Virus record (IMG/VR): IMGVR_UViG_2585427970_000003
DNA: 51,664 nucleotides
Strand: one strand, 5' to 3'
Source of the DNA: a virus
Lineage: Duplodnaviria > Heunggongvirae > Uroviricota > Caudoviricetes
A program made the position numbers and the translations under genes. The notes below the pieces were generated by a model. It worked only from the letters and a program-made list of their open reading frames with translations. It was not told the origin of the DNA and ran no database searches. Of this stretch, positions 23,189 through 47,781 are shown in pieces; within the stretch, counting starts at the first letter, position 1, and each line of letters starts with the position of its first letter.

Positions 23189-26869
<3,681 letters not shown>

Positions 26870-26889
<20 letters not shown>

Positions 26890-28189: not shown

Positions 28190-28198
28190 GGGATGTTT

Positions 28199-28531: not shown

Positions 28532-28586
28532 CTTTACCCTTCATCACTAAAGGCCGCCTGTGCGGCTTTTTTTACGGGATTTTTTT

Positions 28587-29612
28587 ATGTCGATGTACAC
28601 AACCGCCCAGCTGCTGGCGGCAAATGAGCAGAAATTTAAGTTTGATCCGCTGTTTCTGCGTCTCTTTTTCCGTGAGAGCTATCCCTTCACTACGGAGAAA
28701 GTCTATCTCTCACAAATTCCGGGACTGGTAAACATGGCGCTGTACGTTTCGCCGATTGTTTCCGGTGAGGTTATCCGTTCCCGTGGCGGCTCCACCTCTG
28801 AATTTACGCCGGGATATGTCAAACCCAAGCATGAAGTGAATCCGCAGATAACCCTGCGTCGCCTGCCGGATGAAGATCCGCAGAATCTGGCGGACCCGGC
28901 TTACCGCCGCCGTCGCATCATCCTGCAGAACATGCGTGACGAAGAGCTGGCCATTGCTCAGGTCGAAGAGATGCAGGCAGTTTCTGCCGTGCTCAAGGGC
29001 AAATACACCATGACCGGTGAAGCCTTCGATCCGGTTGAGGTGGATATGGGCCGCAGTGTGGCGAACAACATCACGCAGTCCGGCGGCACGGAGTGGAGCA
29101 AGCGTGACAAGTCCACGTATGACCCGACCGACGATATCGAAGCCTACGCGCTGAACGCCAGCGGCGTGGTGAATATCATCGTGTTTGATCCGAAAGGCTG
29201 GGCGCTGTTCCGTTCCTTCAAAGCCGTCAAGGAGAAGCTGGATACCCGTCGCGGCTCTCATTCCGAGCTGGAGACAGCGGTGAAAGACCTGGGTAAAGCG
29301 GTGTCCTATAAGGGGATGTATGGCGATGTGGCCATCGTCGTGTATTCCGGACAGTACGTGGAAAACGGCGTCAAAAAGAACTTCCTGCCGGACAACACGA
29401 TGGTGCTGGGTAACACTCATGCACGCGGTCTGCGCACCTATGGCTGTATTCAGGATGCGGATGCATTGAGTGAGGGTATTAATGCGTCTCCCCGTTATCC
29501 GAAAAACTGGAAGACATCCGGCGATCCGGCGCGAGAGTTCACCATGATTCAGTCAGCACCGCTGATGCTGCTGGCTGATCCTGATGAGTTCGTGTCCGTT
29601 CAACTGGCGTAA
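28587..29612 (+). CDS. E: Major capsid protein E
   Basis: MSMYTTAQLLAANEQKFKFDPLFLRLFFRESYPFTTEKVYLSQIPGLVNMALYVSPIVSGEV... Confidence 0.9.
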   Translation: MSMYTTAQLLAANEQKFKFDPLFLRLFFRESYPFTTEKVYLSQIPGLVNMALYVSPIVSGEVIRSRGGSTSEFTPGYVKPKHEVNPQITLRRLPDEDPQNLADPAYRRRRIILQNMRDEELAIAQVEEMQAVSAVLKGKYTMTGEAFDPVEVDMGRSVANNITQSGGTEWSKRDKSTYDPTDDIEAYALNASGVVNIIVFDPKGWALFRSFKAVKEKLDTRRGSHSELETAVKDLGKAVSYKGMYGDVAIVVYSGQYVENGVKKNFLPDNTMVLGNTHARGLRTYGCIQDADALSEGINASPRYPKNWKTSGDPAREFTMIQSAPLMLLADPDEFVSVQLA

Positions 29613-29653
29613 TCATGGCCCTTCGGGGCCATTTTCTCTCTGTGGAGGAGTCC

Positions 29654-30049
29654 ATGACGAAAGATGAACTGATTGCCCGTCTTCAGGTGCTGGGTGAGCA
29701 ACTGAACCGTGATGTCAGCCTGACGGGGACGAAAGAAGAACTGGCACTCCGTGTGGCAGAGCTGGAAGAGGAGCTTGATGACACGGATGACGCTGCCGGT
29801 CAGGACACATCTGTCAGCCCGGAAAATGCGCTGACCGGACATGAAAATGAGGTGGTATCAGCGCAGCCGGATACCGTGACTGATACGGCTGATCTGGTCA
29901 CGGTTGTGGCACTGGTGACGCTGCATACTGATGCACTTCACGCCACGCGGGATGAGGCTGTGGCATTTGTGCTGCCGGGAACGACGTTCCGTGTCTCTGC
30001 CGGTGTGGCAGCTGAAATGACAGAGCGCGGCCTGGCCAGAATGCAATAA
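29654..30049 (+). CDS. FI: DNA packaging protein FI
   Basis: MTKDELIARLQVLGEQLNRDVSLTGTKEELALRVAELEEELDD... Confidence 0.85.
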   Translation: MTKDELIARLQVLGEQLNRDVSLTGTKEELALRVAELEEELDDTDDAAGQDTSVSPENALTGHENEVVSAQPDTVTDTADLVTVVALVTLHTDALHATRDEAVAFVLPGTTFRVSAGVAAEMTERGLARMQ

Positions 30050-30060
30050 CGGGAGGCGCT

Positions 30061-30414
30061 GTGGCTGATTTCGATAACCTGTTCGATGCTGCCATTGCCC
30101 GCGCCGATGAAACGATACGCGGGTACATGGGAACGTCAGCCACCATGACATCCGGTGAGCAGTCCGGCGCAGTAATACGTGGTGTTTTTGATGATCCTGA
30201 AAATATCAGCTATGCCGGACAGGGCGTACGCGTTGAAGGCTCCAGCCCGTCCCTGTTTGTCCGGACTGATGATGTGCGGCAGCTGCGGCGCGGCGACACG
30301 CTGACCATCGGTGAGGAAAACTTCTGGATAGACCGGATTTCGCCGGATGATGGCGGAAGCTGTCATCTCTGGCTTGGGCGGGGCGTACCGCCTGCCGTTA
30401 ACCGTCGCCGCTGA
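30061..30414 (+). CDS. FII: Head-tail connector FII
   Basis: 117 aa MADFDNLFDAAIARADETIRGYMGTSATMTSGEQSGAVIRGVFDDPENISYAGQG... Confidence 0.85.
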   Translation: MADFDNLFDAAIARADETIRGYMGTSATMTSGEQSGAVIRGVFDDPENISYAGQGVRVEGSSPSLFVRTDDVRQLRRGDTLTIGEENFWIDRISPDDGGSCHLWLGRGVPPAVNRRR

Positions 30415-30425
30415 AAGGGGGATGT

Positions 30426-31004
30426 ATGGCCATAAAAGGTCTTGAGCAGGCCGTTGAAAACCTCAGCCGTATCAGCAGAACGGCGGTGCCCGGTGCCGCC
30501 GCAATGGCCATTAACCGCGTTGCTTCATCCGCGATATCGCAGTCGGCGTCACAGGTTGCCCGTGAGACAAAGGTACGCCGGAAACTGGTAAAGGAAAGGG
30601 CCTGGCTGAAAAGGGCCACGGTCAAAAATCCGCAGGCCAGAATCAGGGTTAACCGGGGGGATTTGCCCGTAATAAAGCTGGGTAACGCGCGGATTGTCCT
30701 GTCCCGACGCAGGCGTCGTAAAAAGGGGCAGCGTTCAGCCCTGAAAGGTGGCGGCAGCGTGCTTGTGGTGGGAAACCGTCGTATTCCCGGCGCGTTTATT
30801 CAGCAACTGAAAAATGGCCGCTGGCATGTCATGCAGCGTGTGGCCGGGAAAAACCGTTACCCCATTGATGTGGTGAAAATCCCGATGGCGGTGCCGCTGA
30901 CCACGGCGTTTAAACAGAATATTGAGCGGATACGGCGTGAGCGTCTTCCGAAAGAGCTGGGCTATGCGCTGCAGCATCAACTGAGAATGGTAATAAAGCG
31001 ATGA
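30426..31004 (+). CDS. Z: Tail terminator / completion protein Z
   Basis: 192 aa, lambda gpZ-like. Confidence 0.85.
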   Translation: MAIKGLEQAVENLSRISRTAVPGAAAMAINRVASSAISQSASQVARETKVRRKLVKERAWLKRATVKNPQARIRVNRGDLPVIKLGNARIVLSRRRRRKKGQRSALKGGGSVLVVGNRRIPGAFIQQLKNGRWHVMQRVAGKNRYPIDVVKIPMAVPLTTAFKQNIERIRRERLPKELGYALQHQLRMVIKR

Positions 31005-31396
31005 AACATACTGAACTCCGTGCAGCCGTACTGGATGCACTGGAGAAGCATGACACCGGGGCGACGCTTTTTGATGGTCGCCCCGCTGTTTTTGATGAGG
31101 CGGATTTTCCGGCAATTGCCGTTTATCTCACCGGCGCTGAATACACGGGCGAAGAGCTGGACAGTGATACCTGGCAGGCGGAGCTGCATATCGAAGTTTT
31201 CCTGCCTGCTCAGGTGCCGGATTCAGAGCTGGATTCGTGGATGGAGTCCCGGATTTATCCGGTGATGAGCGATATCCCGGCACTGTCAGATTTGATCACC
31301 AGTATGGTGGCCAGTGGCTATGACTACCGGCGCGACGATGATGCGGGCCTGTGGAGTTCTGCCGATCTGACGTATGTCATTACCTATGAAATGTGA
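31001..31396 (+). CDS. U: Tail terminator U
   Basis: 131 aa [52 protein letters not shown]... Confidence 0.85.
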
Positions 31397-31403
31397 GGAC
31401 GAT

Positions 31404-32144
31404 ATGCCTGTACCAAATCCAGCAATACCGGTGAAAGGTGCCGGAACCACCCTGTGGGTTTATAACGGGAGCGGCGACCCTTATGCGAACCCGCTTTCAG
31501 ACGTTGACTGGTCGCGTCTGGCAAAAGTTAAAGACCTGACGCCCGGCGAACTGACCGCTGAGTCCTATGACGACAGTTATCTCGATGATGAAGATGCGGA
31601 CTGGACCGCGACCGGGCAGGGGCAGAAATCCGCCGGAGATACCAGCTTCACGCTGGCGTGGATGCCCGGAGAGCAGGGGCAGCAGGCGCTGCTGGCGTGG
31701 TTTAATGAAGGTGATACCCGTGCCTATAAAATCCGCTTCCCGAACGGCACGGTCGATGTGTTCCGTGGCTGGGTCAGCAGTATCGGTAAGGCGGTGACGG
31801 CGAAGGAAGTGATCACCCGTACGGTGAAGGTCACCAATGTGGGCCGTCCGTCAATGGCAGAAGATCGCAGTACGGTGACGGCGGCAACCGGTATGACCGT
31901 GACGCCTGCCAGCTCCTCGGTGGTGAAAGGGCAGAGCACCACGCTGACCGTGGCATTCCAGCCGGAGGGCGCAACTGACAAGAGCTTCCGTGCGGTGTCA
32001 GCGGATAAAACAAAAGCCACCGTGTCGGTCAGTGGTATGACCATCACCGTGAAAGGCGTTGCTGCAGGTAAGGTCAACATTCCGGTTGTATCCGGTAATG
32101 GTGAACTTGCTGCGGTTGCAGAAATCACTGTCACCGACAGTTAA
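31404..32144 (+). CDS. V: Major tail protein V
   Basis: [57 protein letters not shown]...; C-terminal Ig-like domain. Confidence 0.9.
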
Positions 32145-32159
32145 TCCGGAGAGTCAGCG

Positions 32160-32582
32160 ATGTTCCTGAAAACCGAATCATTTGAACATAACGGCGTGAC
32201 CGTCACGCTTTCTGAACTGTCAGCCCTGCAGCGTATTGAGCATCTCGCCCTGATGAAACGGCAGGCAGAACAGGCGGAGTCAGACAGCAACCGGAAGTTT
32301 ACTGTGGAAGACGCCATCAGAACCGGTGCTTTTGTGGTAGCGATGTCCCTGTGGCATAACCATCCGCAGAAGACAAAGCAGCCTTCCATGAATGAAGCCG
32401 TTAAACAGATTGAGCAGGAAGTGCTTACCACCTGGCCTACAGAGGCAATTTCTCATGCTGAAAACGTGGTGTACCGGCTGTCCGGTATGTCTGAGTTTGT
32501 GGTGAATGATGCCCCTGAACAGGCAGAGGACGCCGGGCCAGCAGAGCCTGTTTCTGCGGGAAAGTGTTCGACGGTGAGCTGA
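32160..32582 (+). CDS. G: Tail assembly chaperone G
   Basis: 140 aa, lambda gpG-like; slippery heptamer G GGA AAG at 32558..32564 near its 3' end. Confidence 0.85.
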   Translation: MFLKTESFEHNGVTVTLSELSALQRIEHLALMKRQAEQAESDSNRKFTVEDAIRTGAFVVAMSLWHNHPQKTKQPSMNEAVKQIEQEVLTTWPTEAISHAENVVYRLSGMSEFVVNDAPEQAEDAGPAEPVSAGKCSTVS

Positions 32583-33022
32583 GTTTTGCCCTGAAACTGG
32601 CGCGCGAGATGGGGCGACCCGACTGGCGTGCCATGCTTGCCGGGATGTCATCCACGGAGTATGCCGACTGGCACCGCTTTTACAGTACCCATTATTTTCA
32701 TGATGTTCTGCTGGATATGCACTTTTCCGGGCTGACGTACACCGTGCTCAGCCTGTTTTTCAGCGATCCGGATATGCATCCGCTGGATTTCAGTCTGCTG
32801 AACCGGCGCGAGGCTGACGAAGAGCCTGAAGATGATGTGCTGATGCAGAAAGCGGCAGGACTTGCCGGAGGCGTTCGTTTTGGCCCGGACGGGAATGAAG
32901 TTATCCCCGCTTCCCCGGATGTGGCGGACATGACGGAGGATGACGTAATGCTGATGACAGTATCAGAAGGGATCGCAGGAGGAGTCCGGTATGGCTTAAC
33001 CGGTAGGCGATCTGGTCGTTGA
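32564..33022 (+). CDS. T: T segment of the G-T -1 frameshift fusion, C-terminally extended by 8 codons
   Basis: -1 frame continues from the slippery site (GKVFDGELSFALKLAREMGRPDW...); the lambda TGA stop position reads TTA (32996..32998), so the frame runs on to 33022. Confidence 0.75.
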   Translation: MFDGELSFALKLAREMGRPDWRAMLAGMSSTEYADWHRFYSTHYFHDVLLDMHFSGLTYTVLSLFFSDPDMHPLDFSLLNRREADEEPEDDVLMQKAAGLAGGVRFGPDGNEVIPASPDVADMTEDDVMLMTVSEGIAGGVRYGLTGRRSGR

Positions 33023-33056
33023 TTTAAGTCTGGATGCGGCCAGATTTGACGAGCAG

Positions 33057-35570
33057 ATGGCCAGAGTCAGGCGTCATTTTTCCGGTACGGAAACTGATGC
33101 GAAAAAAACAGCGGCAGTCGTTGAACAGTCGCTGAGCCGACAGGCGCTGGCTGCACAGAAAGCGGGGATTTCCGTCGGGCAGTATAAAGCCGCCATGCGT
33201 ATGCTGCCTGCACAGTTCACCGACGTGGCCACGCAGCTTGCAGGCGGGCAAAGTCCGTGGCTGATCCTGCTGCAACAGGGTGGTCAGGTTAAGGACTCCT
33301 TCGGCGGGATGATCCCCATGTTCAGGGGGCTTGCCGGTGCGATCACCCTGCCGATGGTGGGGGCCACCTCGCTGGCGGTGGCGACCGGTGCGCTGGCGTA
33401 TGCCTGGTATCAGGGCAACTCAACCCTGTCCGATTTCAACAAAACGCTGGTCCTTTCCGGCAATCAGGCGGGACTGACGGCAGATCGTATTCTGGTCCTG
33501 TCCAGAGCCGGGCAGGCGGCAGGGCTGACGTTTAACCAGACCAGCGAGTCACTGACGGCGCTGGTGAATGCCGGTGTGCGTGGTGGTGAGCAGTTTGAGG
33601 CGATCAGCCAGAGTGTGGCGCGTTTCTCCTCTGCATCCGGCGTGGAGGTGGACAAGGTCGCTGAAGCCTTCGGGAAGCTGACCACAGACCCGACGTCGGG
33701 ACTGACAGCGATGGCACGTCAGTTCCATAACGTGACGGCGGAGCAGATTGCGTATGTTGCTCAGTTGCAGCGTTCCGGAGATGAAGCCGGGGCATTGCAG
33801 GCGGCGAACGAGGCCGCAACGAAAGGGTTTGATGACCAGACCCGCCGCCTGAAAGAGAACATGGGCACGCTGGAGACCTGGGCAGACAGGACAGCACGGG
33901 CATTCAAATCCATGTGGGATTCGGTGCTGGATATTGGTCGCCCGGACACTGCCCAGGGAATGCTGGAGAAAGCAGAAAAGGCTTTTGATGAGGCGGACAA
34001 AAAATGGCAGTGGTATCAGAGCCGAAGCCACCGGCGCGGTAAAACCTCAGCATTTCTTGCCAATCTCCGGGGAGCATGGGAGGACAGAGCGAATGCGCAA
34101 CTTGGGCTTTCAGCCGCCACGTTGCAGGCTGATCTTGAAAAGGCCAGAGAGATGGCAGCAAAGGACTGGGCCGAGTCTGAGGCATCACGGCTGAAATATA
34201 CCGAAGAGGCGCAGAAGGCTTACGAACGCCTGCAGACGCCGCTGGAGAAATATACCGCCCGTCAGGAAGAACTGAACAAGGCACTGAAAGACGGGAAAAT
34301 CCTGCAGGCAGATTACAACACGCTGATGGCGGCGGCGAAAAAGGATTATGAAGCGACGCTGAAAAAGCCGAAACAGTCCGGCGTGAAAGTGTCTGCGGGC
34401 GATCGTCAGGAAGACAGTGCTCATGCTGCCCTGCTGACGCTTCAGGCTGAACTCCGGACGCTGGAGAAGCATGCCGGAGCAAATGAGAAAATCAGCCAGC
34501 AGCGCCGGGATTTGTGGAAGGCGGAGAGTCAGTTCGCGGTACTGGAGGAGGCGGCGCAACGTCGCCAGCTGTCCGCACAGGAGAAATCCCTGCTGGCGCA
34601 TAAAGATGAGACGCTGGAGTACAAACGCCAGCTGGCTGCACTTGGCGACAAGGTTACGTATCAGGAGCGCCTGAACGCGCTGGCGCAGCAGGCGGATAAG
34701 TTCGCACAGCAACAACGGGCAAAACGGGCAGCCATTGAGGCGAAAAACCGGGGGCTTACTGACCGGCAGGCAGCGCGGGAAGCCACAGAACAGCGCCTGA
34801 AGGAACAGTATGGCGATAATTCGCTGGCGCTGAATAACGTCATGTCAGAGCAGAAAAAGACCTGGGCGGCTGAAGACCAGCTTCGCGGGAGCTGGATGGC
34901 AGGCCTCAGGTCCGGCTGGAGTGAGTGGGAAGAGAGCGCCACGGACAGTATGTCGCAGGTTAAAAGTGCAGCCACGCAGACCTTTGATGGTATTGCGCAG
35001 AATATGGCGGCGATGCTGACCGGCAGTGAGCAGAACTGGCGCAGCTTCACCCGTTCCGTGCTGTCCATGATGACAGAAATTCTGCTTAAGCAGGCAATGG
35101 TGGGGATTGTCGGGAGTATCGGTAGCGCCATTGGCGGGGCTGTTGGTGGCGGCGCATCCGCATCAGGCGGTACAGCCATTCAGGCAGCTGCGGCGAAATT
35201 CCATTTTGCAACCGGAGGATTTACGGGAACCGGCGGCAAATATGAGCCAGCGGGGATTGTTCACCGTGGTGAATTTGTCTTCACGAAGGAGGCAACCAGC
35301 CGAATTGGTGTCGGCAACCTGTACCGCCTGATGCGGGGCTATGCGGAAGGTGGTTATGTGGGCGGTGCCGGAAGTCCGGCGCAGATGCGGCGGGCTGAAG
35401 GCATTAATTTTAATCAGAACAATCACGTGGTGATTCAGAACGACGGTACGAATGGTCTGCCAGGTCCACAGATGATGAAGGCAGTGTATGACATGGCCCG
35501 CAAGGGTGCCCGTGATGAAATTCAGGCACAGATGCGCGATGGTGGTCTGTTCTCCGGAGGTGGACGATGA
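33057..35570 (+). CDS. H: Tape measure protein H, N-terminally compromised
   Basis: Native start ATG 32991 is followed by GCT then TAA (32997..32999); longest intact ORF restarts at Met23 (33057), 837 aa, otherwise lambda gpH-like. Confidence 0.8.
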   Translation: MARVRRHFSGTETDAKKTAAVVEQSLSRQALAAQKAGISVGQYKAAMRMLPAQFTDVATQLAGGQSPWLILLQQGGQVKDSFGGMIPMFRGLAGAITLPMVGATSLAVATGALAYAWYQGNSTLSDFNKTLVLSGNQAGLTADRILVLSRAGQAAGLTFNQTSESLTALVNAGVRGGEQFEAISQSVARFSSASGVEVDKVAEAFGKLTTDPTSGLTAMARQFHNVTAEQIAYVAQLQRSGDEAGALQAANEAATKGFDDQTRRLKENMGTLETWADRTARAFKSMWDSVLDIGRPDTAQGMLEKAEKAFDEADKKWQWYQSRSHRRGKTSAFLANLRGAWEDRANAQLGLSAATLQADLEKAREMAAKDWAESEASRLKYTEEAQKAYERLQTPLEKYTARQEELNKALKDGKILQADYNTLMAAAKKDYEATLKKPKQSGVKVSAGDRQEDSAHAALLTLQAELRTLEKHAGANEKISQQRRDLWKAESQFAVLEEAAQRRQLSAQEKSLLAHKDETLEYKRQLAALGDKVTYQERLNALAQQADKFAQQQRAKRAAIEAKNRGLTDRQAAREATEQRLKEQYGDNSLALNNVMSEQKKTWAAEDQLRGSWMAGLRSGWSEWEESATDSMSQVKSAATQTFDGIAQNMAAMLTGSEQNWRSFTRSVLSMMTEILLKQAMVGIVGSIGSAIGGAVGGGASASGGTAIQAAAAKFHFATGGFTGTGGKYEPAGIVHRGEFVFTKEATSRIGVGNLYRLMRGYAEGGYVGGAGSPAQMRRAEGINFNQNNHVVIQNDGTNGLPGPQMMKAVYDMARKGARDEIQAQMRDGGLFSGGGR

Positions 35571-35896
35571 AGACCTTCCGCTGGAAAGTGAAACCCGGTA
35601 TGGATGTGGCTTCGGCCCCTTCCGTCAGGAAAGTGCGCTTTGGTGATGGCTATTCCCAGCGAGCGCCTGCCGGGCTGAATGCCAACCTGAAAACGTACAG
35701 CGTGACGCTTTCTGTTCCCCGTTGGGAGGCCACGGCGCTGGAGTCGTTTCTGGCTGAGCACGGGGGCTGGAAAGCCTTTCTGTGGACGCCGCCTTATGAG
35801 TGGCGGCAGATAAAGGTGACCTGCGCAAAATGGTCGTCGCGGGTCAGTATGCTGCGTGTTGAGTTCAGCGCAGAGTTTGAACAGGTGGTGAACTGA
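35567..35896 (+). CDS. M: Tail tip assembly protein M
   Basis: 109 aa MKTFRWKVKPGMDVASAPSVRKVRFGDGYSQRAPAGLNANLKTYSV... Confidence 0.85.
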   Translation: MKTFRWKVKPGMDVASAPSVRKVRFGDGYSQRAPAGLNANLKTYSVTLSVPRWEATALESFLAEHGGWKAFLWTPPYEWRQIKVTCAKWSSRVSMLRVEFSAEFEQVVN

Positions 35897-36594
35897 TGCA
35901 GGATATCCGGCAGGAAACACTGAATGAATGCACCCGTGCGGAGCAGTCGGCCAGCGTGGTGCTCTGGGAAATCGACCTGACAGAGGTCGGTGGAGAACGT
36001 TATTTTTTCTGTAATGAGCAGAACGAAAAAGGTGAGCCGGTCACCTGGCAGGGGCGACAGTATCAGCCGTATCCCATTCAGGGGAGTGGTTTTGAACTGA
36101 ATGGCAAAGGCACCAGTACGCGCCCCACACTGACGGTTTCTAACCTGTACGGTATGGTCACCGGGATGGCGGAAGATCTGCAGAGTCTGGTCGGTGGAAC
36201 GGTGGTCCGGCGTAAGGTTTACGCCCGTTTTCTGGATGCGGTGAACTTCGTCAACGGAAACAGTGGCGCCGATCCGGAGCAGGAGGTGATCAGCCGCTGG
36301 CGCATTGAGCAGTGCAGCGAACTGAGCGCGGTGAGTGCCTCTTTTGTACTGTCCACGCCGACGGAAACGGACGGTGCTGTTTTTCCGGGACGTATCATGC
36401 TGGCCAACACCTGCACCTGGACCTATCGCGGTGATGAGTGCGGTTATCACGGTCCGGCAGTCGCGGATGAATATGACCAGCCAACGTCCGATATCACGAA
36501 GGATAAATGCAGCAAATGCCTGAGCGGTTGTAAGTTCCGCAATAACGTCGGCAACTTTGGCGGCTTCCTTTCCATTAACAAACTTTCGCAGTAA
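35896..36594 (+). CDS. L: Tail tip protein L
   Basis: 232 aa, lambda gpL-like. Confidence 0.85.
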   Translation: MQDIRQETLNECTRAEQSASVVLWEIDLTEVGGERYFFCNEQNEKGEPVTWQGRQYQPYPIQGSGFELNGKGTSTRPTLTVSNLYGMVTGMAEDLQSLVGGTVVRRKVYARFLDAVNFVNGNSGADPEQEVISRWRIEQCSELSAVSASFVLSTPTETDGAVFPGRIMLANTCTWTYRGDECGYHGPAVADEYDQPTSDITKDKCSKCLSGCKFRNNVGNFGGFLSINKLSQ

Positions 36595-36599
36595 ATCCC

Positions 36600-37343
36600 A
36601 TGACACAGACAGAATCAGCGATTCTGGCGCACGCCCGGCGATGTGCGCCAGCGGAGTCGTGCGGCTTCGTGGTGAGAGCGCCGGAGGGGGAAAGATATTT
36701 TCCCGGCGTGAATATTTCCGGTGAGCCGGAGGATTATTTCCGGATGGCTCCGGAGGACTGGCTGCAGGCAGAAATGCAGGGTGAGATTGTGGCGCTGGTC
36801 CACAGCCACCCCGGTGGTCTGCCCTGGCTGAGTGAGGCTGACCGGCGGCTGCAGGTGCAGAGTGATTTGCCGTGGTGGCTGGTCTGCCGGGGGGCGATTC
36901 ATAAGTTCCGCTGTGTGCCGCATCTCACCGGGCGGCGCTTTGAGCACGGGGTGACGGACTGTTACACGCTGTTCCGGGATGCTTATCATCTGGCGGGGAT
37001 TGAGATGCCGGATTTTCATCGCGAGGATGACTGGTGGCGTCACGGTCAGAATCTCTATCTGGATAATCTGGAGGCCACAGGGCTGTATCAGGTGCCGTTG
37101 TCAGCGGCGCAGCCGGGCGATGTGCTGCTGTGCTGTTTTGGTTCATCGGTGCCGAATCATGCCGCCATTTACTGTGGTGACGGTGAGCTGCTGCACCATA
37201 TTCCTGAACAACTGAGTAAACGAGAGAGGTACACCGACAAATGGCAGCGACGCACACACTCCCTCTGGCGTCACCGGGAATGGCACGCATCTGCCTTTAC
37301 GGGGATTTGCAACGATTTGGCCGCCGCATCGACCTTCGTGTGA
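36600..37343 (+). CDS. K: Tail tip assembly protein K (JAMM/MPN plus NlpC/P60-type)
   Basis: MTQTESAILAHARRCAPAESCGFVV...; HSHPGG...SEAD metalloprotease-like motif. Confidence 0.8.
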   Translation: MTQTESAILAHARRCAPAESCGFVVRAPEGERYFPGVNISGEPEDYFRMAPEDWLQAEMQGEIVALVHSHPGGLPWLSEADRRLQVQSDLPWWLVCRGAIHKFRCVPHLTGRRFEHGVTDCYTLFRDAYHLAGIEMPDFHREDDWWRHGQNLYLDNLEATGLYQVPLSAAQPGDVLLCCFGSSVPNHAAIYCGDGELLHHIPEQLSKRERYTDKWQRRTHSLWRHREWHASAFTGICNDLAAASTFV

Positions 37344-37912
37344 AAACGGGGGCTGAAGCCATCCGCGCACTGGCCACACAGCTCCCGGCGTTTCGTCAGA
37401 AACTGAGCGACGGCTGGTATCAGGTACGGATTGCCGGGCAGGATGTCAGCACGTCCGGATTAACGGCGCAGTTACATGAGACTCTGCCTGATGGCGCTGT
37501 GATTCATATTGTTCCCAGAGTCGCCGGGGCCAAGTCTGGTGGTGTATTCCAGATTGTCCTGGGAGCAGCCGCCATTGCCGGATCATTCTTTACCGCCGGA
37601 GCCACCCTTGCAGCATGGGGGGCAGCCATTGGGGCCGGTGGTATGACCGGCATCCTGTTTTCTCTCGGTGCCAGTATGGTGCTCGGTGGTGTGGCGCAGA
37701 TGCTGGCACCGAAAGCCAGAACTCCCCGTACACAGACAACGGATAACGGCAAACAGAACACCTATTTCTCCTCACTGGATAACATGGTTGCCCAGGGCAA
37801 TGTTCTGCCTGTTCTGTACGGTGAAATGCGCGTGGGGTCACGCGTGGTTTCTCAGGAGATCAGCACGGCAGACGAAGGGGATGGTGGTCAGGTTGTGGTG
37901 ATTGGTCGCTGA
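37241..37912 (+). CDS. I: Tail tip assembly protein I
   Basis: 223 aa, lambda gpI-like; overlaps the 3' end of K. Confidence 0.8.
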   Translation: MAATHTLPLASPGMARICLYGDLQRFGRRIDLRVKTGAEAIRALATQLPAFRQKLSDGWYQVRIAGQDVSTSGLTAQLHETLPDGAVIHIVPRVAGAKSGGVFQIVLGAAAIAGSFFTAGATLAAWGAAIGAGGMTGILFSLGASMVLGGVAQMLAPKARTPRTQTTDNGKQNTYFSSLDNMVAQGNVLPVLYGEMRVGSRVVSQEISTADEGDGGQVVVIGR

Positions 37913-37972
37913 TGCAAAATGTTTTATGTGAAACCGCCTGCGGGCGGTTTTGTCGTTTATGGAGCGTGAGGA

Positions 37973-40900
37973 ATGGGTAAAGGCAGCAGTAAGGGGCATA
38001 CCCCGCGCGAAGCGAAGGACAACCTGAAGTCCACGCAGCTGCTGAGTGTGATCGATGCCATCAGCGAAGGGCCGGTTGAAGGTCCGGTGGACGGATTAAA
38101 AAGCGTGCTGCTGAACAGTACGCCGGTGCTGGACAGTGAGGGGAATACCAATATATCCGGCGTCACGGTGGTGTTCCGGACCGGTGAGCAGGAGCAGTCA
38201 CCGCCGGAGGGATTTGAATCCTCCGGCTCCGAGACGGTGCTGGGTACGGAAGTGAAATATGACACGCCGATCACCCGGACCATCACGTCGGCAAACATCG
38301 ACCGTCTGCGCTTTACCTTCGGTGTACAGGCACTGGTGGAAACCACCTCAAAGGGGGACCGGAATCCGTCGGAAGTCCGCCTGCTGGTTCAGATACAGCG
38401 TAATGGTGGCTGGGTGACGGAAAAAGACATCACCATTAAGGGCAAAACCACCTCGCAGTATCTGGCCTCGGTGGTGGTGGATAACCTGCCGCCGCGCCCG
38501 TTCAATATCCGGATGCGCAGGATGACGCCGGACAGCACCACAGACCAGCTGCAGAACAAAACGCTCTGGTCGTCATACACCGAAATCATCGATGTGAAAC
38601 AGGGCTACCCGAACACGGCACTGGTCGGCGTGCAGGTGGATTCGGAGCAGTTCGGCAGCCAGCAGGTGAGCCGTAATTATCATCTGCGCGGGCGTATTCT
38701 GCAGGTGCCGTCGAATTATAACCCGCAGACGCGGCAATACAGCGGTATCTGGGACGGAACGTTTAAACCGGCATACAGCAACAACATGGCCTGGTGTCTG
38801 TGGGATATGCTGACCCACCCGCGCTACGGCATGGGGAAACGTCTTGGTGCGGCAGATGTGGATAAATGGGCGCTGTATGTCATCGGCCAGAATTGCGACC
38901 AGTCGGTGCCGGACGGCTTTGGCGGCACGGAGCCGCGCATTACCTGTAATGCGTACCTGACCACACAGCGCAAGGCGTGGGATGTGCTCAGTGATTTCTG
39001 CTCGGCGATGCGCTGTATGCCGGTATGGAACGGGCAGACGCTGACGTTCGTGCAGGACCGACCGTCGGATAAGGTGTGGACCTATAACCGCAGTAATGTG
39101 GTGATGCCGGATGATGGCGCGCCGTTCCGCTACAGCTTCAGCGCCCTGAAGGACCGTCATAATGCCGTTGAGGTGAACTGGATTGACCCGAATAACGGCT
39201 GGGAGACGGCGACAGAGCTTGTGGAGGATACGCAGGCCATTGTCCGTTACGGTCGTAACGTCACGAAGATGGATGCCTTTGGCTGTACCAGCCGGGGGCA
39301 GGCGCACCGCGCCGGGCTGTGGCTGATTAAAACGGAACTGCTGGAAACGCAGACCGTGGACTTCAGCGTGGGTGCGGAAGGGCTTCGCCATGTACCGGGG
39401 GATGTCATTGAAATCTGCGATGATGACTATGCGGGTATCAGCATCGGCGGGCGCGTGCTGGCGGTGAACAGCCAGACCCGGACGCTGACGCTCGACCGTG
39501 AAATCACGCTGCCATCCTCCGGTACCACGCTGATAAGCCTGGTTGACGGAAGTGGCAATCCGGTCAGCGTGGAGGTCCAGTCCGTCACCGACGGCGTGAA
39601 GGTAAAAGTGAGCCGTGTTCCTGACGGCGTTGCCGGATACAGCGTGTGGGGGCTGAAGCTGCCGACGCTGCGCCAGCGCCTGTTCCGCTGCGTGAGTATC
39701 CGTGAGAACGATGACGGCACGTATGCCATCACCGCCGTGCAGCATGTACCGGAAAAAGAGGCCATCGTGGATAACGGGGCGCACTTTGACGGCGACCAGA
39801 GCGGCACGGTGAATGGTGTCACGCCGCCAGCGGTGCAGCACCTGACTGCCGAAGTCACCGCAGACAGCGGGGAATATCAGGTACTGGCCCGCTGGGACAC
39901 GCCGAAGGTGGTGAAGGGGGTGAGCTTTATGCTTCGCCTGACCGTGGCAGCGGATGACGGCAGTGAGCGGCTGGTCAGCACAGCCCGGACGGCGGAAACC
40001 ACATACCGCTTCACACAACTGGCGCTGGGGAACTACAGGCTGACAGTCCGGGCAGTAAATGCGTGGGGGCAGCAGGGCGATCCGGCATCGGTATCGTTCC
40101 GGATTGCCGCACCGGCAGCGCCGTCGCAGATTGAGCTGACACCGGGGTATTTTCAGATAACCGCCACGCCGCATCTTGCGGTTTATGATCCGACGGTACA
40201 GTTTGAGTTCTGGTTCTCGGAAAAGCGGATTGCGGATATCAGGCAGGTTGAAACCAGCGCGCGCTATCTTGGCACGGGGATGTACTGGATAGCCGCCAGT
40301 ATCAATATCAAACCGGGCCATGATTATTACTTTTATATCCGCAGTGTGAACACCGTTGGCAAATCGGCATTCGTGGAGGCTGTCGGTCAGGCGAGCGATG
40401 ATGCGGAAGGTTACCTGGATTTTTTCAAAGGCCAGATAACCGAATCCCATCTCGGCAAGGAGCTGCTGGAAAAAGTCGAGCTGACGGAGGATAACGCCAG
40501 CAAACTGGAGGAGTTTTCGAAAGAGTGGCAGGACGCTAACGATAAGTGGAATGCCATGTGGGGCGTCAAAATTGAGCAGACCAAAGACGGCAAACATTAT
40601 GTCGCGGGTATTGGCCTCAGCATGGAGGACACGGAAGAAGGTAAGCTGAGCCAGTTTCTGGTTGCCGCTAACCGTATCGCGTTTATTGAACCGGCAAACG
40701 GGAATGAAACGCCGATGTTTGTGGCGCAGGGCAATCAGATATTTATGAACGACGTGTTCCTGAAGCGCCTGACGGCCCCGACCATTACCAGCGGTGGAAA
40801 TCCACCGGCATTTTCCCTGACATCAGACGGAAAGCTGACCGCTAAAAATGCGGATATCAGTGGCAGTGTGAATGCGAACGCCGGGACGCTCAACAATGTC

Positions 40901-41446
40901 ACGGTAAATGAAAACTGTACGATTAAGGGCATGCTGGAGGCGACTCAGGTCAGAGGTGACTTCGTTAAAGCTGTATCCAAATCATTCCCGAAACAGGCTG
41001 GTACGTGGGGTAATACGGAAACACCAAACGGGACGGTTACAGTCACCATCAGCGATGATCATAACTTTGACCGTCAAATCATTATTCCGCCCATTATCTT
41101 TAACGGAATAGCGTATAGCGATCCGGGAAGTGGTAATAACCCGGGAGGTACAAGATACACGGGTTATGGTTTTGAAGTTCGCAAAAACGGTGTATTAATC
41201 GCATCCAGAGAAACTAAAGGGGCCATTCCCGGTAGCTACAGTGCGGTTATTGATATGCCGAGTGGCAGGGGAAGCGTCACTCTGGAGTTTAAGGTTTTCC
41301 ATAAAGGCAATCAGCGGGCAGGTAATATCACCGACTGTACGGTGATTGTGACCAAAAAAGCGGCTTCTGCGTATTTTCATGAAAGGAGATCACTCAATAA
41401 CTTCCATCGAGATCGGGTAATAACATTTGAACAGATCGCTGAATAA
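37973..41446 (+). CDS. J: Tail tip / host-specificity protein J, 3' end replaced by IS-derived sequence
   Basis: [43 protein letters not shown]...; the last 25 codons (from 41369) lie inside the left inverted repeat of an IS21-family element. Confidence 0.85.
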
Positions 41447-41560
41447 CATCGATGGAGATCACTTTTGACTCATTTTGTTATTCAGTGATCTCCATCAATG
41501 TTATTGGAACTTCACAGGTGTGTTGATCTGTATCTTTTGCCATTCCGGTAAAGGATACCT

Positions 41561-43102
41561 ATGCCAACAGTTCCAATTTCTATGAGAAAACTTAAAGAAA
41601 TTCTTAGGCTTAAATACGGTGTTGGACTCAGCCATCGACAAATTGGTCGTAGTCTTGCAATCTCCCCTTCCGTTGTATCCAGATATGCTAATCGGGCGGC
41701 TCAACTTGGCATAAAGCAGTGGCCCTTACCTACAGGATGGGATGATACAAAACTAAAACATGCGTTCCTTCAGACCCAGGTTAAGATGAAGAAGCACTCT
41801 CTGCCTGACTGGGCTACAGTACACCGGGAACTGCGTAATAAATGCGTGACGCTGCAGCTACTCTGGGAAGAATACTGTGAGCGTAATCCAGGCGGTTTTT
41901 ACAGCTATAACCATTACTGCCGGATGTACCGTGAATGGCTCAAAACCACTTCACCATCAATGCGTCAGGTACATAAAGCTGGCGAAAAACTTTTCGTTGA
42001 TTACTGTGGACCTACCGTTGGCGTTACCGACCCTGAGACCGGAGAAATAAGAACTGCTCAGGTCATCGTAGCTGTTCTCGGGGCATCAAGTTACACATGG
42101 GCAGAGGCCACCTGGTCTCAGCAGCTTGAAGACTGGGTGATGAGTCATGTTCGCTGCTTCCAGTGGTTGGGTGGCGTTCCTGAACTTGTTGTTCCGGACA
42201 ATCTGAAAAGCGCCACATCCAGGGCATGTAAGTATGATCCTGACGTTAACCCTACCTACCAGCAGATGCTTGAGCATTATAATGTCGCAGTTTTGCCTGC
42301 GCGGCCACGTAAACCGAAAGATAAAGCCAAAGCTGAAGTTGGCGTTCAGGTTGTTGAACGCTGGATCATGGCCCGAATCAGGCATGAGATCTTCTACAGC
42401 CTTGCATCGCTTAATCAGCGCATTCGGGAGTTGCTGGAAAGACTGAATAACAAAATAATGCAGAAGTTGGGTTATTCACGTGCAGAACTCTTCATCCAGC
42501 TTGATAAACCCGCACTGAAGCCTCTTCCTGAAGCCAGTTACAGTTACACCCTGGTGAAGAAAGTCAGAGTTCATGCCGATTACCACGTGGAAATCGACAA
42601 ACATTACTACTCGGTTCCATGTTCGCTGTTAGGCCAGCAACTGGAAGCATGGATCTCCGGAGAACTGGTAAGACTCTTCAATCAGGGGCAGGAGGTTGCT
42701 GTGCACCCGCGCAAGCGTACTTATGGCTACAGTACCCGCAACGAGCACATGCCTGAAGCTCATCGACAGCATGCCACCTGGACGCCAGAGCGTCTTCTGG
42801 AATGGGCGGGGCACATAGGCAGTGAAACTCATAGTTATGTGCTTCATATACTGAACTCTCGTCCACATCCGGAACAAAGCTATCGCTTCTGCCTTGGACT
42901 CCTGAACCTTCATAAAAAATACAGTAAAGCCAGACTTAATGCAGCATGTGCAAGAGCTCTGAAAACAAAGGTATGGCGTCTGTCAGGTATTAAATCGATC
43001 CTGGAAAAAGGTCTGGATAAACAACCTGTTCAGGATCCAAAACCAGATCTGTTATCCACGATGGAACACGAAAACGTACGCGGCAGTGAGTATTACCACT
43101 GA
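41561..43102 (+). CDS. istA: IS21-family transposase IstA
   Basis: 513 aa; N-terminal HTH then integrase-core-like catalytic region. Confidence 0.8.
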   Translation: MPTVPISMRKLKEILRLKYGVGLSHRQIGRSLAISPSVVSRYANRAAQLGIKQWPLPTGWDDTKLKHAFLQTQVKMKKHSLPDWATVHRELRNKCVTLQLLWEEYCERNPGGFYSYNHYCRMYREWLKTTSPSMRQVHKAGEKLFVDYCGPTVGVTDPETGEIRTAQVIVAVLGASSYTWAEATWSQQLEDWVMSHVRCFQWLGGVPELVVPDNLKSATSRACKYDPDVNPTYQQMLEHYNVAVLPARPRKPKDKAKAEVGVQVVERWIMARIRHEIFYSLASLNQRIRELLERLNNKIMQKLGYSRAELFIQLDKPALKPLPEASYSYTLVKKVRVHADYHVEIDKHYYSVPCSLLGQQLEAWISGELVRLFNQGQEVAVHPRKRTYGYSTRNEHMPEAHRQHATWTPERLLEWAGHIGSETHSYVLHILNSRPHPEQSYRFCLGLLNLHKKYSKARLNAACARALKTKVWRLSGIKSILEKGLDKQPVQDPKPDLLSTMEHENVRGSEYYH

Positions 43103-43113
43103 TACGGGATCCA

Positions 43114-43863
43114 ATGATGAATCATCTTTACGAACAACTGACCGCACTTAAACTCACCGGCTTCCGTGATGCGCTTAAAAAGCAACTTGCTCAGCCGGGC
43201 ACATACCAGGAGCTGGGCTTCGAAGAACGCCTGTCATTACTGACAGCAGAAGAACTAACCTGCCGTGAAAACAGGAAGGCAGAGCGTCTGATCAAACATG
43301 CACGGTTCAGACTTAATGCTGAGTTATCAAAGCTGGATTATCGTAACAATAGAGGGCTGGACAGGGCCCTCATCCGTTCACTCAGTCAGGGAAACTGGTT
43401 AACCCTGAAACAAAATATTTTACTGACCGGGGCCACCGGCAGCGGTAAAACGTTCCTGGCATGTGCACTTGGTCATAATGCCTGCCGACAGGGATACAAG
43501 GTCTACTATTATCGCCTTAAAGCGCTGATGGAACAGTGCTATCAGGGGCATGCTGATGGAAGATACAGCAAACTTTTGACCAGGCTGAATAATAGCGATC
43601 TGCTGCTTCTGGATGACTGGGGGCTGGAACCTCTCTCATCAGAACAGCGTAGCGACCTGCTGGAAATAGTGGATCTGATGTACCAACGAGGCTCAATCAT
43701 CGTAGTGAGCCAGTTGCCGGTGGAAAACTGGTACAAAATGATCGGAGACTCCACACATGCGGATGCCATCCTAGATCGACTGGTTCATGGCAGTATCAAG
43801 ATCGAACTTAAAGGAGAATCAATGCGGAAAATACAATCTCCGTTGACCGAAGGAGATCAGTGA
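43114..43863 (+). CDS. istB: IS21-family ATP-binding helper IstB
   Basis: 249 aa; Walker A GATGSGKT, Walker B LLLLDDWG. Confidence 0.85.
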   Translation: MMNHLYEQLTALKLTGFRDALKKQLAQPGTYQELGFEERLSLLTAEELTCRENRKAERLIKHARFRLNAELSKLDYRNNRGLDRALIRSLSQGNWLTLKQNILLTGATGSGKTFLACALGHNACRQGYKVYYYRLKALMEQCYQGHADGRYSKLLTRLNNSDLLLLDDWGLEPLSSEQRSDLLEIVDLMYQRGSIIVVSQLPVENWYKMIGDSTHADAILDRLVHGSIKIELKGESMRKIQSPLTEGDQ

Positions 43864-44042
43864 AGGTAATTTAAAAACGGTTCTGTGAAAGTGACACGAA
43901 CCGATCTCCATCGATGTTACTCACCGATCTCCTTCACGGTAATACGCAGCTTCAGGCATCAGTATTCGTTGAAATATTTATAACCCCAATAAATGGCGTC
44001 AGGAATGACGCCTTTTTTATTGCAGAAAAGCGAGAGGTAATT

Positions 44043-44642
44043 ATGCGTAAAGTTTGTGCAGCCATTTTGTCCGCAGCCATTTGTCTGGCCGTATCCGGTG
44101 CGCCTGCATGGGCGTCTGAACATCAGTCCACGCTGAGCGCGGGGTATCTTCATGCCCGGACCAACGTTCCCGGCAGTGATGATCTGAACGGGATTAACGT
44201 GAAATACCGTTATGAGTTTACGGATACGCTGGGGCTGGTGACGTCATTCAGCTATGCAGGAGACAAGAATCGCCAGCTGACCCATTACAGCGATACCCGC
44301 TGGCATGAAGATTCCGTTCGTAACCGCTGGTTCAGCGTAATGGCGGGGCCGTCTGTGCGCGTGAATGAATGGTTCAGCGCGTATGCGATGGCGGGTGTGG
44401 CTTACAGCCGTGTGTCGACTTTCTCCGGGGATTATCTCCGCGTAACTGACAACAAGGGGAAAACGCACGACGTGCTGACCGGAAGTGATGACGGTCGCCA
44501 CAGCAACACGTCTCTGGCGTGGGGAGCTGGCGTGCAGTTTAACCCGACCGAATCCGTGGCCATTGATATTGCTTATGAAGGCTCCGGCAGTGGCGACTGG
44601 CGCACTGACGGTTTCATCGTGGGTGTCGGTTATAAGTTCTGA
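44043..44642 (+). CDS. lom: Lom outer-membrane protein (Ail/Lom family)
   Basis: MRKVCAAILSAAICLAVSGAPAWA signal peptide; C-terminus ...DIAYEGSGSGDWRTDGFIVGVGYKF as in lambda Lom. Confidence 0.85.
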   Translation: MRKVCAAILSAAICLAVSGAPAWASEHQSTLSAGYLHARTNVPGSDDLNGINVKYRYEFTDTLGLVTSFSYAGDKNRQLTHYSDTRWHEDSVRNRWFSVMAGPSVRVNEWFSAYAMAGVAYSRVSTFSGDYLRVTDNKGKTHDVLTGSDDGRHSNTSLAWGAGVQFNPTESVAIDIAYEGSGSGDWRTDGFIVGVGYKF

Positions 44643-44670
44643 TTAGCCAGGTAACACAGTGTTATGACAG

Positions 44671-44697
44671 CCCGCCGGTTCAGGCGGGCTTTTTTGT
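44671..44697 (+). terminator. Intrinsic terminator after lom
   Basis: GCCCGCC-GGTTCA-GGCGGGC hairpin followed by TTTTTTG. Confidence 0.65.
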
Positions 44698-44706
44698 GGG
44701 GTGAAT

Positions 44707-47700
44707 ATGGCAGTAAAGATTTCAGGTGTACTGAAAGACGGCACAGGAAAACCGGTACAGAACTGCACAATCCAGCTGAAAGCAAAACGTAACAGCACCA
44801 CGGTGGTGGTGAACACGCTGGCCTCAGAAAATCCGGATGAAGCCGGGCGTTACAGCATGGACGTTGAGTACGGTCAGTACAGCGTTATTCTGTTGGTGGA
44901 AGGATTCCCGCCGTCACATGCCGGGACCATCACCGTGTATGAAGATTCCCGACCCGGTACGCTGAATGATTTTCTCGGTGCCATGACGGAGGATGATGCC
45001 CGTCCGGAGGCTCTGCGCCGTTTTGAACTGATGGTGGAAGAGGTGGCGCGTAACGCGTCCGCGGTGGCACAGAACACGGCAGCCGCGAAGAAGTCAGCCA
45101 GTGATGCCGGCACATCTGCCAGTGAGGCGGCAACCCATGCGACTGATGCTGCAGGCTCAGCGCGTGCAGCCAGCACGTCAGCCGGACAGGCCGCGACGTC
45201 GGCTCAGGAGGCGTCTTCCAGCGCAGGAACGGCATCAACAAAGGCCACTGAAGCATCAAAAAGTGCTGCCGCTGCAGAGTCCTCAAAAAGCGCGGCGGCC
45301 ACCAGTGCCGGTGCCGCGAAAACGTCAGAAACGAATGCTGCAGCGTCACAAAAATCAGCAGCCACTTCTGCATCCACTGCGACGACGAAAGCGTCAGAAG
45401 CCGCCACTTCAGCCCGGGATGCGGCGGCCTCCAAAGAGGCGGCAAAATCATCAGAAACGAACGCCTCCACAAGCGCCAGCAGTGCAGCCTCCTCGGCAAC
45501 GGCGGCAGGAAATTCCGTGAAGGCGGCAAAAACGTCCGAGACGAATGCTAAGTCTTCTGAAACGGCAGCGGAACAGAGCGCCTCAGCTGCGGCAGACTCT
45601 GAGACAACAGCTGCATCATCGGCCCGTGAGGCGTCCATTAAGGCAGAGGAGGCAGCAGTCAGTGCCACCGCCGCCGGAAAATCGGCAGAAAGCGCCGCAT
45701 CATCCGCTTCAACAGCCACAACGAAGGCTGGCGAAGCCACTGAACAGGCCAGCGCAGCAGCGAGGTCTGCTTCCGCAGCGAAGACATCCGAAACGAACGC
45801 GAAAGCGTCGGAAACCAGCGCAGAATCCTCAAAAACGGCTGCCGCATCGTCCGCCAGTTCGGCGGCGTCATCGGCATCATCGGCGTCTGCTTCAAAAGAT
45901 GAGGCGACCAGACAGGCGTCAGCAGCGAGGGGCAGCGCCACGACGGCATCCACGAAGGCGACAGAGGCTGCTGGCAGTGCGGCAGCGGCAGCACAGAGCA
46001 AAAGTACGGCAGAATCCGCAGCAACGCGCGCCGAGACAGCAGCAAAACGGGCAGAGGATATTGCATCCGCCGTGGCGCTTGAGGATGCGAGCACGACGAA
46101 AAAGGGGATAGTACAGCTCAGTAGTGCGACTAACAGCACTTCCGAGTCACTGGCGGCAACACCAAAAGCCGTTAAGGCCGCGTATGACCTGGCTAACGGG
46201 AAATACACCGCACAGGATGCAACGACAGCACAGAAAGGGATAATCCAGCTAAGCAGCGCGACCAACAGCACGTCTGAAACGCTTGCCGCGACACCAAAGG
46301 CAGTAAAAGCAGCCAATGACAATGCTGAGAAACGTCTGCAGAAAGATCAGAACGGTGCGGATATCCCTGGCAAAGATACCTTTACGAAAAATATTGGTGC
46401 CTGCCGTGCCTTCGGTGGGTCAGTAAGCACAACAACAGGAAACTGGACGACTGCACAGTTTATCGAGTGGCTGGATTCTCAGGGAGCATTTAACCATCCA
46501 TACTGGATGTGCAAGGGTTCCTGGTCTTATGGCAATAATAAAATCATTACTGATACTGACTGCGGTAATATTCATCTCGCCGGAGCTGTCATTGAAGTAA
46601 TGGGGATAAAGTCAGCGATGACGATCCGCATTACCACACCGACCACCTCCACTGGTGGTGGAACAACTAACGCCCAGTTTACCTATATTAATCACGGAAC
46701 AGATTATTCACCTGGCTGGCGAAGGGACTATAACTCCAGAAATAAGCCAACGGCATCAGAGATCGGGGCGTTACCGTCAGGTGGAACAGCAGTATCATCA
46801 GTTAATCTGGCTTCAAAAGGTCGGGTAACCGCGCTGACAGACAATACGCAGGGGGCAGCAGGTCTTGAGTTATACGAGGTGTATAACAACGGATATCCAA
46901 CAGCGTATGGAAATATCATTCACCTGAAAGGGATGACAGCCGTTGGCGAAGGTGAGTTACTCATCGGCTGGAGTGGTACAAGCGGTGCTCATGCTCCGGC
47001 ATTTATTCGTTCACGACGGGATACGACCGACGCAAACTGGTCGCCGTGGGCGCAGCTTTACACCTCGGCTCATCCTCCTGCAGAGTTTTATCCAGTCGGT
47101 GCACCAATCCCGTGGCCATCAGATACCGTTCCGTCTGGCTATGCCCTGATGCAGGGGCAGACTTTTGACAAATCTGCATACCCGAAACTTGCAGTTGCTT
47201 ATCCGTCAGGCGTGATCCCTGATATGCGTGGCTGGACGATTAAGGGCAAGCCCGCCAGTGGTCGGGCCGTATTATCTCAGGAACAGGACGGCATTAAATC
47301 GCACACCCACAGCGCCAGCGCATCCAGTACGGATTTGGGGACGAAAACCACATCGTCGTTTGATTACGGAACCAAATCCACGAATAACACCGGGGCGCAT
47401 ACCCATAGTATTAGCGGGACCGCAAATAGTGCCGGTGCGCACCAACACAAGAGTTCCGGTGCATTTGGTGGCACGAACACGAGCATTTTCCCTAATGGTT
47501 ATACCGCGATTTCAAATCTAAGCGCGGGGATTATGAGCACAACAAGCGGTAGTGGCCAGACTCGTAATGCAGGGAAGACATCATCAGATGGTGCTCATAC
47601 CCACTCGCTGTCCGGCACTGCTGCAAGCGCAGGCGCACATGCACATACTGTCGGTATTGGTGCTCATACGCACTCCGTTGCGATTGGTTCACATGGACAC

Positions 47701-47781
47701 ACCATCACCGTTAACGCTGCTGGTAACGCGGAAAACACCGTCAAAAACATCGCATTTAACTATATTGTGAGGCTTGCATAA
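44707..47781 (+). CDS. stf: Side tail fibre Stf (full length)
   Basis: [60 protein letters not shown]...; long Ala/Ser/Thr-rich central repeat; His-rich C-terminal region. Confidence 0.85.

Follow-up and report, generated by a model that had tools for sequence, protein, structure and literature searches.

Two lesions in the tail genes of a Qin-site prophage

The DNA analysed here (the window, a single stretch of 51,664 nucleotides; IMG/VR record IMGVR_UViG_2585427970_000003) matches without a difference a part of contig JMJD01000003.1 of the Escherichia coli assembly GCA_000714975.1 and contains a lambdoid prophage at the Qin locus, in the rspB-ydfJ interval, as placed by its open reading frames (ORFs) and by BLAST against complete E. 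coli genomes. Its gene content identifies it as a full-length E. coli Qin prophage that carries the head and tail genes of phage lambda itself. The Qin signature genes are all present (dicA, dicC, dicB, DicF, relBE, hokD, cspB/F/I, essQ, rrrQ, rzpQ and pinQ), every K-12 Qin protein was recovered at 99-100% identity, and the right flank matches the ydfJ region of complete genomes at 100% identity. Two tail genes are interrupted: the tape-measure gene H by a stop codon at its beginning, and J by an insertion sequence (IS) close to its end. The features of the two lesions are as follows.

32997-32999, + strand: lesion 1, ochre stop TAA at codon 3 of the tape-measure gene H, created by G-to-T at 32997 (GAA to TAA)
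32564-33022, + strand: T reading frame, stop lost and eight codons added (ORF of 152 amino acids, normally 144)
33057-35570, + strand: remaining H frame from Met23, open, 837 amino acids (RefSeq WP_077764032.1)
37973-41367, + strand: native part of J, 1,132 of 1,137 codons; the fused ORF continues to 41446
41368-43948, + strand: lesion 2, ISEc12 (IS21 family), 2,581 bp, with istA (41561-43102) and istB (43114-43863) both full length
41363-41367 (left) and 43949-43953 (right): 5-bp target-site duplication GCTTC, defined against the uninterrupted J of strain NS-NP030 (L001)
43949-43972, + strand: orphaned 3' end of J with its stop, including the right GCTTC copy

Lesion 1 is a single substitution. 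The window has ATGGCTTAA where lambda and every relative examined have ATGGCTGAA, and H, starting from its ATG at 32991, consequently reads Met-Ala-stop, followed by an open frame of 856 codons to 35570. H and T overlap in different frames (ATGGCTGA), and the mutation falls within the 4-base T/H overlap; because one base serves both overlapping frames, the G-to-T change at 32997 that stops H also turns the T stop TGA (32996-32998) into TTA. T, and hence any G-T fusion, gains the residues LTGRRSGR up to a TGA at 33020-33022. The initial annotation did not remark that a single base change both stops H and deprives T of its stop. The first in-frame start after the H stop is Met23 (33057), 57 nt downstream, where predicted anti-Shine-Dalgarno pairing amounts to -2.2 kcal/mol compared with -10.3 kcal/mol at the native H start, and three out-of-frame starts (33019, 33034 and 33046) lie between the stop and Met23. 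Because Met23 lacks a Shine-Dalgarno sequence and these out-of-frame starts intervene, H would be produced only by inefficient reinitiation, and the allele is expected to be null or strongly reduced.

Lesion 2 is an intact copy of ISEc12, 99.88% identical over 2,581 bp to the annotated ISEc12 of strain G6/7. Pfam assigns rve and Mu-transpos_C_2 domains to istA and IstB_IS21 to istB (E=2e-67), and the element ends in TGCGTA...TACGCA with the multiple imperfect terminal inverted repeats typical of IS21 elements. It is inserted five codons (16 nucleotides) before the J stop, with the result that J loses its last residues, GISIR, and gains 25 IS-encoded residues to form a 1,157-amino-acid fusion. 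The Pfam model Ig_GpJ_C (135 positions) is covered from 1 to 134 by the intact orthologue and from 1 to 129 by the J of the window, and it extends to the last residue of lambda J; a terminal motif, KK.A.GIS, is common to lambda J and to the J type of the window, even though their receptor-binding domains are only ~37-40% identical. Pfam coverage and the conserved terminal motif argue, indirectly, that the C-terminal end of J matters. AlphaFold2 models of the receptor-binding domain in its intact and fused forms had a mean predicted local distance difference test score (pLDDT) of 56.6 and 46.7 respectively, too low to read the role of the last five residues, and a search for homologues of this domain yielded, with few exceptions, near-identical fragments of the same J type. 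In the papers on the structure of the lambda tail, neither the N-terminus of H nor the last residues of J are discussed.

Both lesions are rare. Among 5,426 complete E. coli genomes, a 61-bp probe across the H stop gave 3,506 matching records, none of them at 100%, and the J/IS junction was found in no genome; three apparent full-length matches to the junction were rejected, each consisting of two separate pieces with ISEc12 in lom. The comparison with orthologous prophages that the initial annotation had proposed therefore found neither lesion in the complete genomes. The mutant H pattern was likewise absent from species-representative genomes and from viral contigs, the wild-type control being found at least 120 times in the latter. 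In an exact look-up across ~15 billion proteins, the 837-residue H, the 1,157-residue J fusion and the 152-residue T occurred on only two to three contigs (the 152-residue T on only two), belonging to two separate National Center for Biotechnology Information (NCBI) accession series and a Logan read assembly. On these results the lesions are genuine, linked and private to one strain lineage, and hence recent. A sequencing or assembly error at the H stop, which would leave the IS insertion as the sole real lesion, is scarcely credible: the stop is indeed a single-base difference seen in no other complete genome, but it is a substitution rather than a homopolymer indel, and the 837-residue H and 152-residue T were recorded in both NCBI series and in the Logan assembly.

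Integrity of the late, early and lysis regions

The remainder of the late region resembles that of lambda throughout, and comprises the following features.

22454-22465, + strand: cosN 12-base cohesive end, flanked by cosQ and cosB, directly upstream of nu1
22643-30414, + strand: head and packaging genes nu1, A, W, B, C/nu3, D, E, FI and FII; full length by tblastn, 87-99% identity to lambda
30426-32582, + strand: tail genes Z, U, V and G, full-length lambda matches
35567-37912, + strand: tail-tip genes M, L, K and I, full length, 95-99% identical to lambda
44043-48356, + strand: lom, full-length stf (~1,024 amino acids) and tfa; located by tblastn, starts and stops checked

The gene order is the same as in lambda, nu1-A-W-B-C/nu3-D-E-FI-FII-Z-U-V-G/T-H-M-L-K-I-J-lom-stf-tfa, the late-region DNA is ~97% identical and protein identity runs at 87-100%; positions 22092-40942 align to lambda from 48141 via cos to 18474 in two blocks (97.1% and 95.4%) separated by a short unaligned gap inside H. 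All 25 of the 25 lambda morphogenesis proteins were found in order by tblastn, with identities of 46-100% and Lom as the outlier. The cos site is identical or nearly so: cosN, cosQ and 120 bp upstream match lambda exactly, and cosB has six differences over ~190 bp. The programmed -1 frameshift site between G and T, GGGAAAG, is present at 32558. With T, H and J set aside, the 22 other late genes from nu1 to tfa have lambda starts, no internal stops and stops at the expected positions. These data agree with the earlier claim that H and J bear the only obvious lesions in an otherwise complete lambda-type module. A functional module of lambda type would require intact H and J, and the window has TAA at codon 3 of the former and ISEc12 splitting the latter.

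Upstream of the late operon, and at the right-hand attachment (att) site, the features are those of Qin.

20-1300, - strand: integrase, 426 amino acids as annotated in relatives (longest ORF 20-1315); Pfam Arm DNA-binding and Phage_integrase catalytic domains
1335-1586, - strand: excisionase, full-length match to Pfam DUF1233 (putative excisionase)
1659-4130, - strand: early-left exonuclease, 823 amino acids, open; PHROG exonuclease match over residues 1-822 of 823
4774-4825, - strand: DicF small RNA, Rfam RF00039 (76.7 bits, gathering score 48)
5867-6588: immunity region, with the dicA repressor gene at 5867-6274 (- strand) and the cro-like dicC at 6358-6588 (+ strand), both 100% identical to K-12
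7074-8039, + strand: O-like replication initiator, 321 amino acids; PHROG replication initiation O-like, E=1e-91
13137-13890, + strand: toxin-antitoxin genes relB, relE and hokD, all three proteins 100% identical to K-12
15768-16520, + strand: late antiterminator Q (ydfT), Pfam Antiterm, 100% identical to K-12 YdfT
18424-19979, + strand: lysis cassette of holin essQ, ydfR, endolysin rrrQ, and spanins rzpQ and embedded rzoQ, all full length
50379-50389: attR core TTATGGATTTC, which takes in the ydfJ start codon at 50381; defined by comparing the attL of strain WP7-S17-ESBL-04 (L003), the attP of PhiR42_1 and HannyBb, and the window

The integrase is annotated as intact in the near-identical locus of WP7-S17-ESBL-04, a related Qin-site prophage. 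The exact exonuclease protein is found in thousands of assemblies, and the gene is frameshifted in WP7-S17-ESBL-04 and truncated in K-12. Pseudogene flags placed on the exonuclease, ydfD and dicB genes of WP7-S17-ESBL-04 by the Prokaryotic Genome Annotation Pipeline (PGAP) were considered as possible shared defects and rejected, as all three are open in the window and identical to their K-12 or phage versions. The O-like initiator matches its PhiR42_1 counterpart at 100% identity and that of the free phage HannyBb at 99.4%, and it is followed by a DUF977 protein gene, without a loader gene. Absence of a P/DnaC-type helicase-loader gene was considered as a third lesion and also rejected: HannyBb is viable with the same O-like and DUF977 arrangement and near-identical proteins. 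DicA, DicC, DicB, YdfD, RelB, RelE, HokD, Q, the holin, YdfR and the Rz-like and Rz1-like proteins are identical to those of K-12, and the endolysin RrrQ differs from its K-12 counterpart at one residue. The statement that terminase, portal, capsid, lysis and toxin-antitoxin genes have full-length ORFs is thus confirmed, the head genes by lambda starts and stops, and the lysis genes, relB, relE and hokD by (near-)identity to K-12. Further inactivating mutations, which the initial annotation had named as evidence against its proposal, were looked for in the head and lysis genes, where none is visible.

The closest relative is PhiR42_1 (PV340562, host ECOR13), a prophage of the same type that has a lambda-type late region in which H and J are uninterrupted. 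Over positions 1-22,300 of the window, which take in int/xis and the immunity, replication, Q and lysis regions, the two differ by nine substitutions and no indels. In the PhiR42_1 record the attR-side and int-side arms are united through the core TTATGGATTTC, forming attP, and because it carries this joined site the record represents the excised form of the same prophage type. Nothing speaks more strongly than this likeness for working early, regulatory and lysis functions in the window, and the early half is plausibly functional. A literature search found no publication on how PhiR42_1 was obtained, nor any on ECOR prophage induction. Two free phages share parts of the same equipment: HannyBb (PP925841) has int, xis, exonuclease, O-like, DUF977, ydfU, Q and the attP site in common with the window, whereas its head module and immunity region differ, and mEp460 shares the int-xis-exo and O-like modules.

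Predicted phenotype and competing explanations

The prophage is probably tail-defective and otherwise competent, with two recent lesions and the rest intact. A full-length Qin at rspB/ydfJ, combining Qin early, immunity, accessory and lysis regions with the lambda morphogenesis module, has recently acquired two independent mutations in one lineage, the G-to-T change in the T/H overlap and an intact ISEc12 in J, leaving the genes for excision, replication, late transcription, packaging, head assembly and lysis without visible damage. Induction would then be expected to lead through excision, replication, packaging and lysis to the release of non-infectious, DNA-filled heads. Few or no tails would be made, any that formed would have an altered receptor-binding tip, and infectious virions would be absent or very rare. 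Because the polar effects of nonsense mutations and insertions are limited under Q-modified late transcription, genes located 3' of the H stop and 3' of the IS should continue to be expressed. By analogy, the phenotype would be that of the classical H-minus and J-minus mutants of lambda; lambda H and J nonsense (amber) mutants produce normal DNA-filled heads and no functional tails. The lesions in the window differ from those of laboratory lambda in being natural rather than amber mutations. The prophage looks like an early step on a path of decay for which K-12, where the nu1-to-stf region is deleted, provides the endpoint, and the strain would offer a convenient natural test of excision, packaging and lysis by a DicA-controlled Qin prophage.

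Several points weigh against this view. Low-level reinitiation at Met23 could bypass the H stop at a cost of only 22 N-terminal residues; these residues belong to the end of H that lies away from the tail tip, and few copies of H are needed per tail. The initial annotation called both lesions disabling, and it had their positions exactly right (32991 is the H ATG, and 43953 is the last base of the right duplication); disabling is likely to be the correct word for H, but for J, which loses just five of its 1,137 residues, it is unproven. With respect to the route of induction, DicA (135 amino acids) matches only helix-turn-helix DNA-binding families in Pfam; relatives that share the early architecture have been deposited as phages. 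The catalytic motif of RrrQ (E35/D44/T50) is present, but T50 is adjoined by a rare substitution, I51F (window position 19102, codon 51), an allele found in only one of 1,806 complete genomes with rrrQ, that of strain CREC_5, where the surrounding Qin-site prophage has another head module. The excised genome with its IS would measure ~50.4 kb from the att coordinates, or ~104% of lambda, which is close to the lambda packaging ceiling. Finally, excision cannot be judged from the window by itself, because attL lies ~19-29 bp to the left of base 1; at the other end, the window finishes with the ydfJ stop.

Two other explanations concern what induction would yield. The prophage may already be inert for other reasons, such as a non-inducible DicA-type immunity or hidden missense or regulatory defects, and the tail lesions would then be neutral hits in a domesticated element that gives neither heads nor lysis on induction. 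We consider this doubtful, if a serious possibility. It would fit the restriction of the DicA matches to helix-turn-helix families, and a left half 99.9% conserved in hundreds of complete genomes, with an exonuclease in thousands of assemblies, is what a long-resident, vertically inherited element would present; the stretch from the methyltransferase gene to ydfW contains pseudogenes and a transposase remnant, hok and sok have been separated, and K-12 Qin is a known cryptic prophage. Set against this, the immunity and replication regions are, but for the nine substitutions, those of PhiR42_1, which was deposited as a phage genome with attP, the int-xis-exo and O-like modules occur in the free phages HannyBb and mEp460, and late genes less than 3% diverged from lambda and free of other lesions argue against long neutral decay. 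Conversely, the lesions may be leaky and some infectious virions made, through H reinitiated at Met23 and a J fusion that still binds its receptor. Each lesion does lie at the very edge of the gene affected (codon 3 of 859 in H and five codons before the J stop), an in-frame ATG follows the H stop, PGAP annotates the 837-residue H and the 1,157-residue J as ordinary proteins, and the intact side tail fibres, Stf and Tfa, could aid adsorption. Yet the restart ATG lacks a Shine-Dalgarno sequence and is preceded by three out-of-frame starts, the Pfam receptor-binding model takes in lambda J up to its very end and divergent J types keep the terminal motif, 25 foreign residues are added to a trimeric receptor-binding tip, and T and G-T are also extended by eight residues. 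We consider leakiness unlikely.

The position of both lesions in tail genes, as first described, stands, whereas the preference for tail genes that it implied is not supported. H and J are the two longest late genes, and the probability that two hits both fall in any tail gene is 0.10 over the whole prophage and 0.44 over the late operon, or 0.016 and 0.067 respectively for both falling in H or J. Two hits in tail genes (n=2) are not beyond chance, and no tail-specific process is shown. Related Qin-site prophages have lesions at other places: in WP7-S17-ESBL-04 a 12-kb integrative element interrupts the major capsid gene E and, separately, ISCro1 interrupts H, and in WS0115A IS66 lies between xis and int. 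It is very improbable that selection, or a preference of the IS for certain targets, underlies the lesions, disarming lambdoid prophages at J and H and sparing packaging-competent heads, lysis and accessory genes. Hints in that direction are the recurrence of ISEc12 in the same orientation in the J-lom region of unrelated prophages and the single base that hits both the T stop and H. The same element (99.9%) lies in the same orientation in J of SE15 (L022, 9456-15440) and Z1323CEC0004 (L023, 7235-13294), and in lom of G6/7 (L002, 11937-15119) and its relatives; its insertion points, at nucleotides ~354 and ~2937 of J and ~306 of lom, do not include the junction seen in the window. Were prophages disarmed in this way, the element might release tailless, DNA-filled heads, or be a 'safe' prophage favoured by the host.

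Repeated, independent ISEc12 insertion in J and lom could, as an observation in its own right, indicate either a regional hot spot or selection, and its ascertainment is biased, since the query held J together with the IS. The 12-kb element in WP7-S17-ESBL-04 (29588-42513 of that locus) encodes an integrase, a primase, capsid and decoration proteins and a small terminase of its own, and resembles a capsid-encoding phage satellite.

What the window contains is a prophage of a familiar kind, ordinary and disabled only recently, and Qin, the lambda tail genes and ISEc12 were already publicly annotated. Its importance alone is low, since prophage decay can be expected to begin in the longest late genes, through point mutations and IS insertions.

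Relation to K-12 Qin and to lambda

The Qin prophage of K-12 MG1655 occupies the same rspB-ydfJ site, its shared segments are 99.8-99.97% identical to the window, and dicA/dicC/dicB/DicF, relBE/hokD, the csp genes, Q, the lysis genes and pinQ are the same. It differs in being without three blocks of the window, 1180-3363, 6852-11650 and 23172-46825, the last of these deletions taking out the entire morphogenesis module between codon 176 of nu1 and the final 318 codons of stf, all of which the window keeps. The window thereby offers a picture of the K-12 cryptic prophage before its three large deletions, and explains the orphan genes ydfW, ydfX, nohA and stfQ as pieces of longer genes that the window has intact. 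K-12 ydfX corresponds to the first 93 codons of a YdaT/cII-like gene of 173 amino acids (window 6572-6850), and ydfW, in frame, to the final 49 codons of an ISNCY-type transposase ORF of 437 amino acids (10522-11835). Similarly, nohA represents residues 1-176 of Nu1 (22643-23171), and stfQ the last 318 residues of the ~1,024-residue side tail fibre (46826-47781). The ISNCY-type ORF is open over its 437 codons in the window, whereas PhiR42_1 has a stop at codon 130 (window 10909) and PGAP records a partial gene in WP7-S17-ESBL-04.

Compared with lambda, the early, immunity and lysis regions of the window are of Qin type, the receptor-binding domain of J is of another type, and stf is full length where that of laboratory lambda is frameshifted. 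The Ala/Ser-rich repetitive middle of stf (44701-47781) gives rise to long spurious ORFs on both strands, and an Rfam IS009 RNA match lies within the 3' part of tfa (48124-48322).

Among the accessory genes, the hok/sok locus is split, the sok antisense RNA (10277-10448; Rfam, 104 bits) lying 3.3 kb upstream of hokD (13735-13890); relative to HannyBb, the interval between them is an insertion that contains the transposase ORF, flxA, ydfV and relBE. Rfam cspA-type thermoregulator leaders are found upstream of cspB (17294-17686) and cspI (20196-20581). At the right end of the prophage the ATG of ydfJ falls within the att core TTATGGATTTC, and this host transporter gene therefore obtains its start from the prophage junction.

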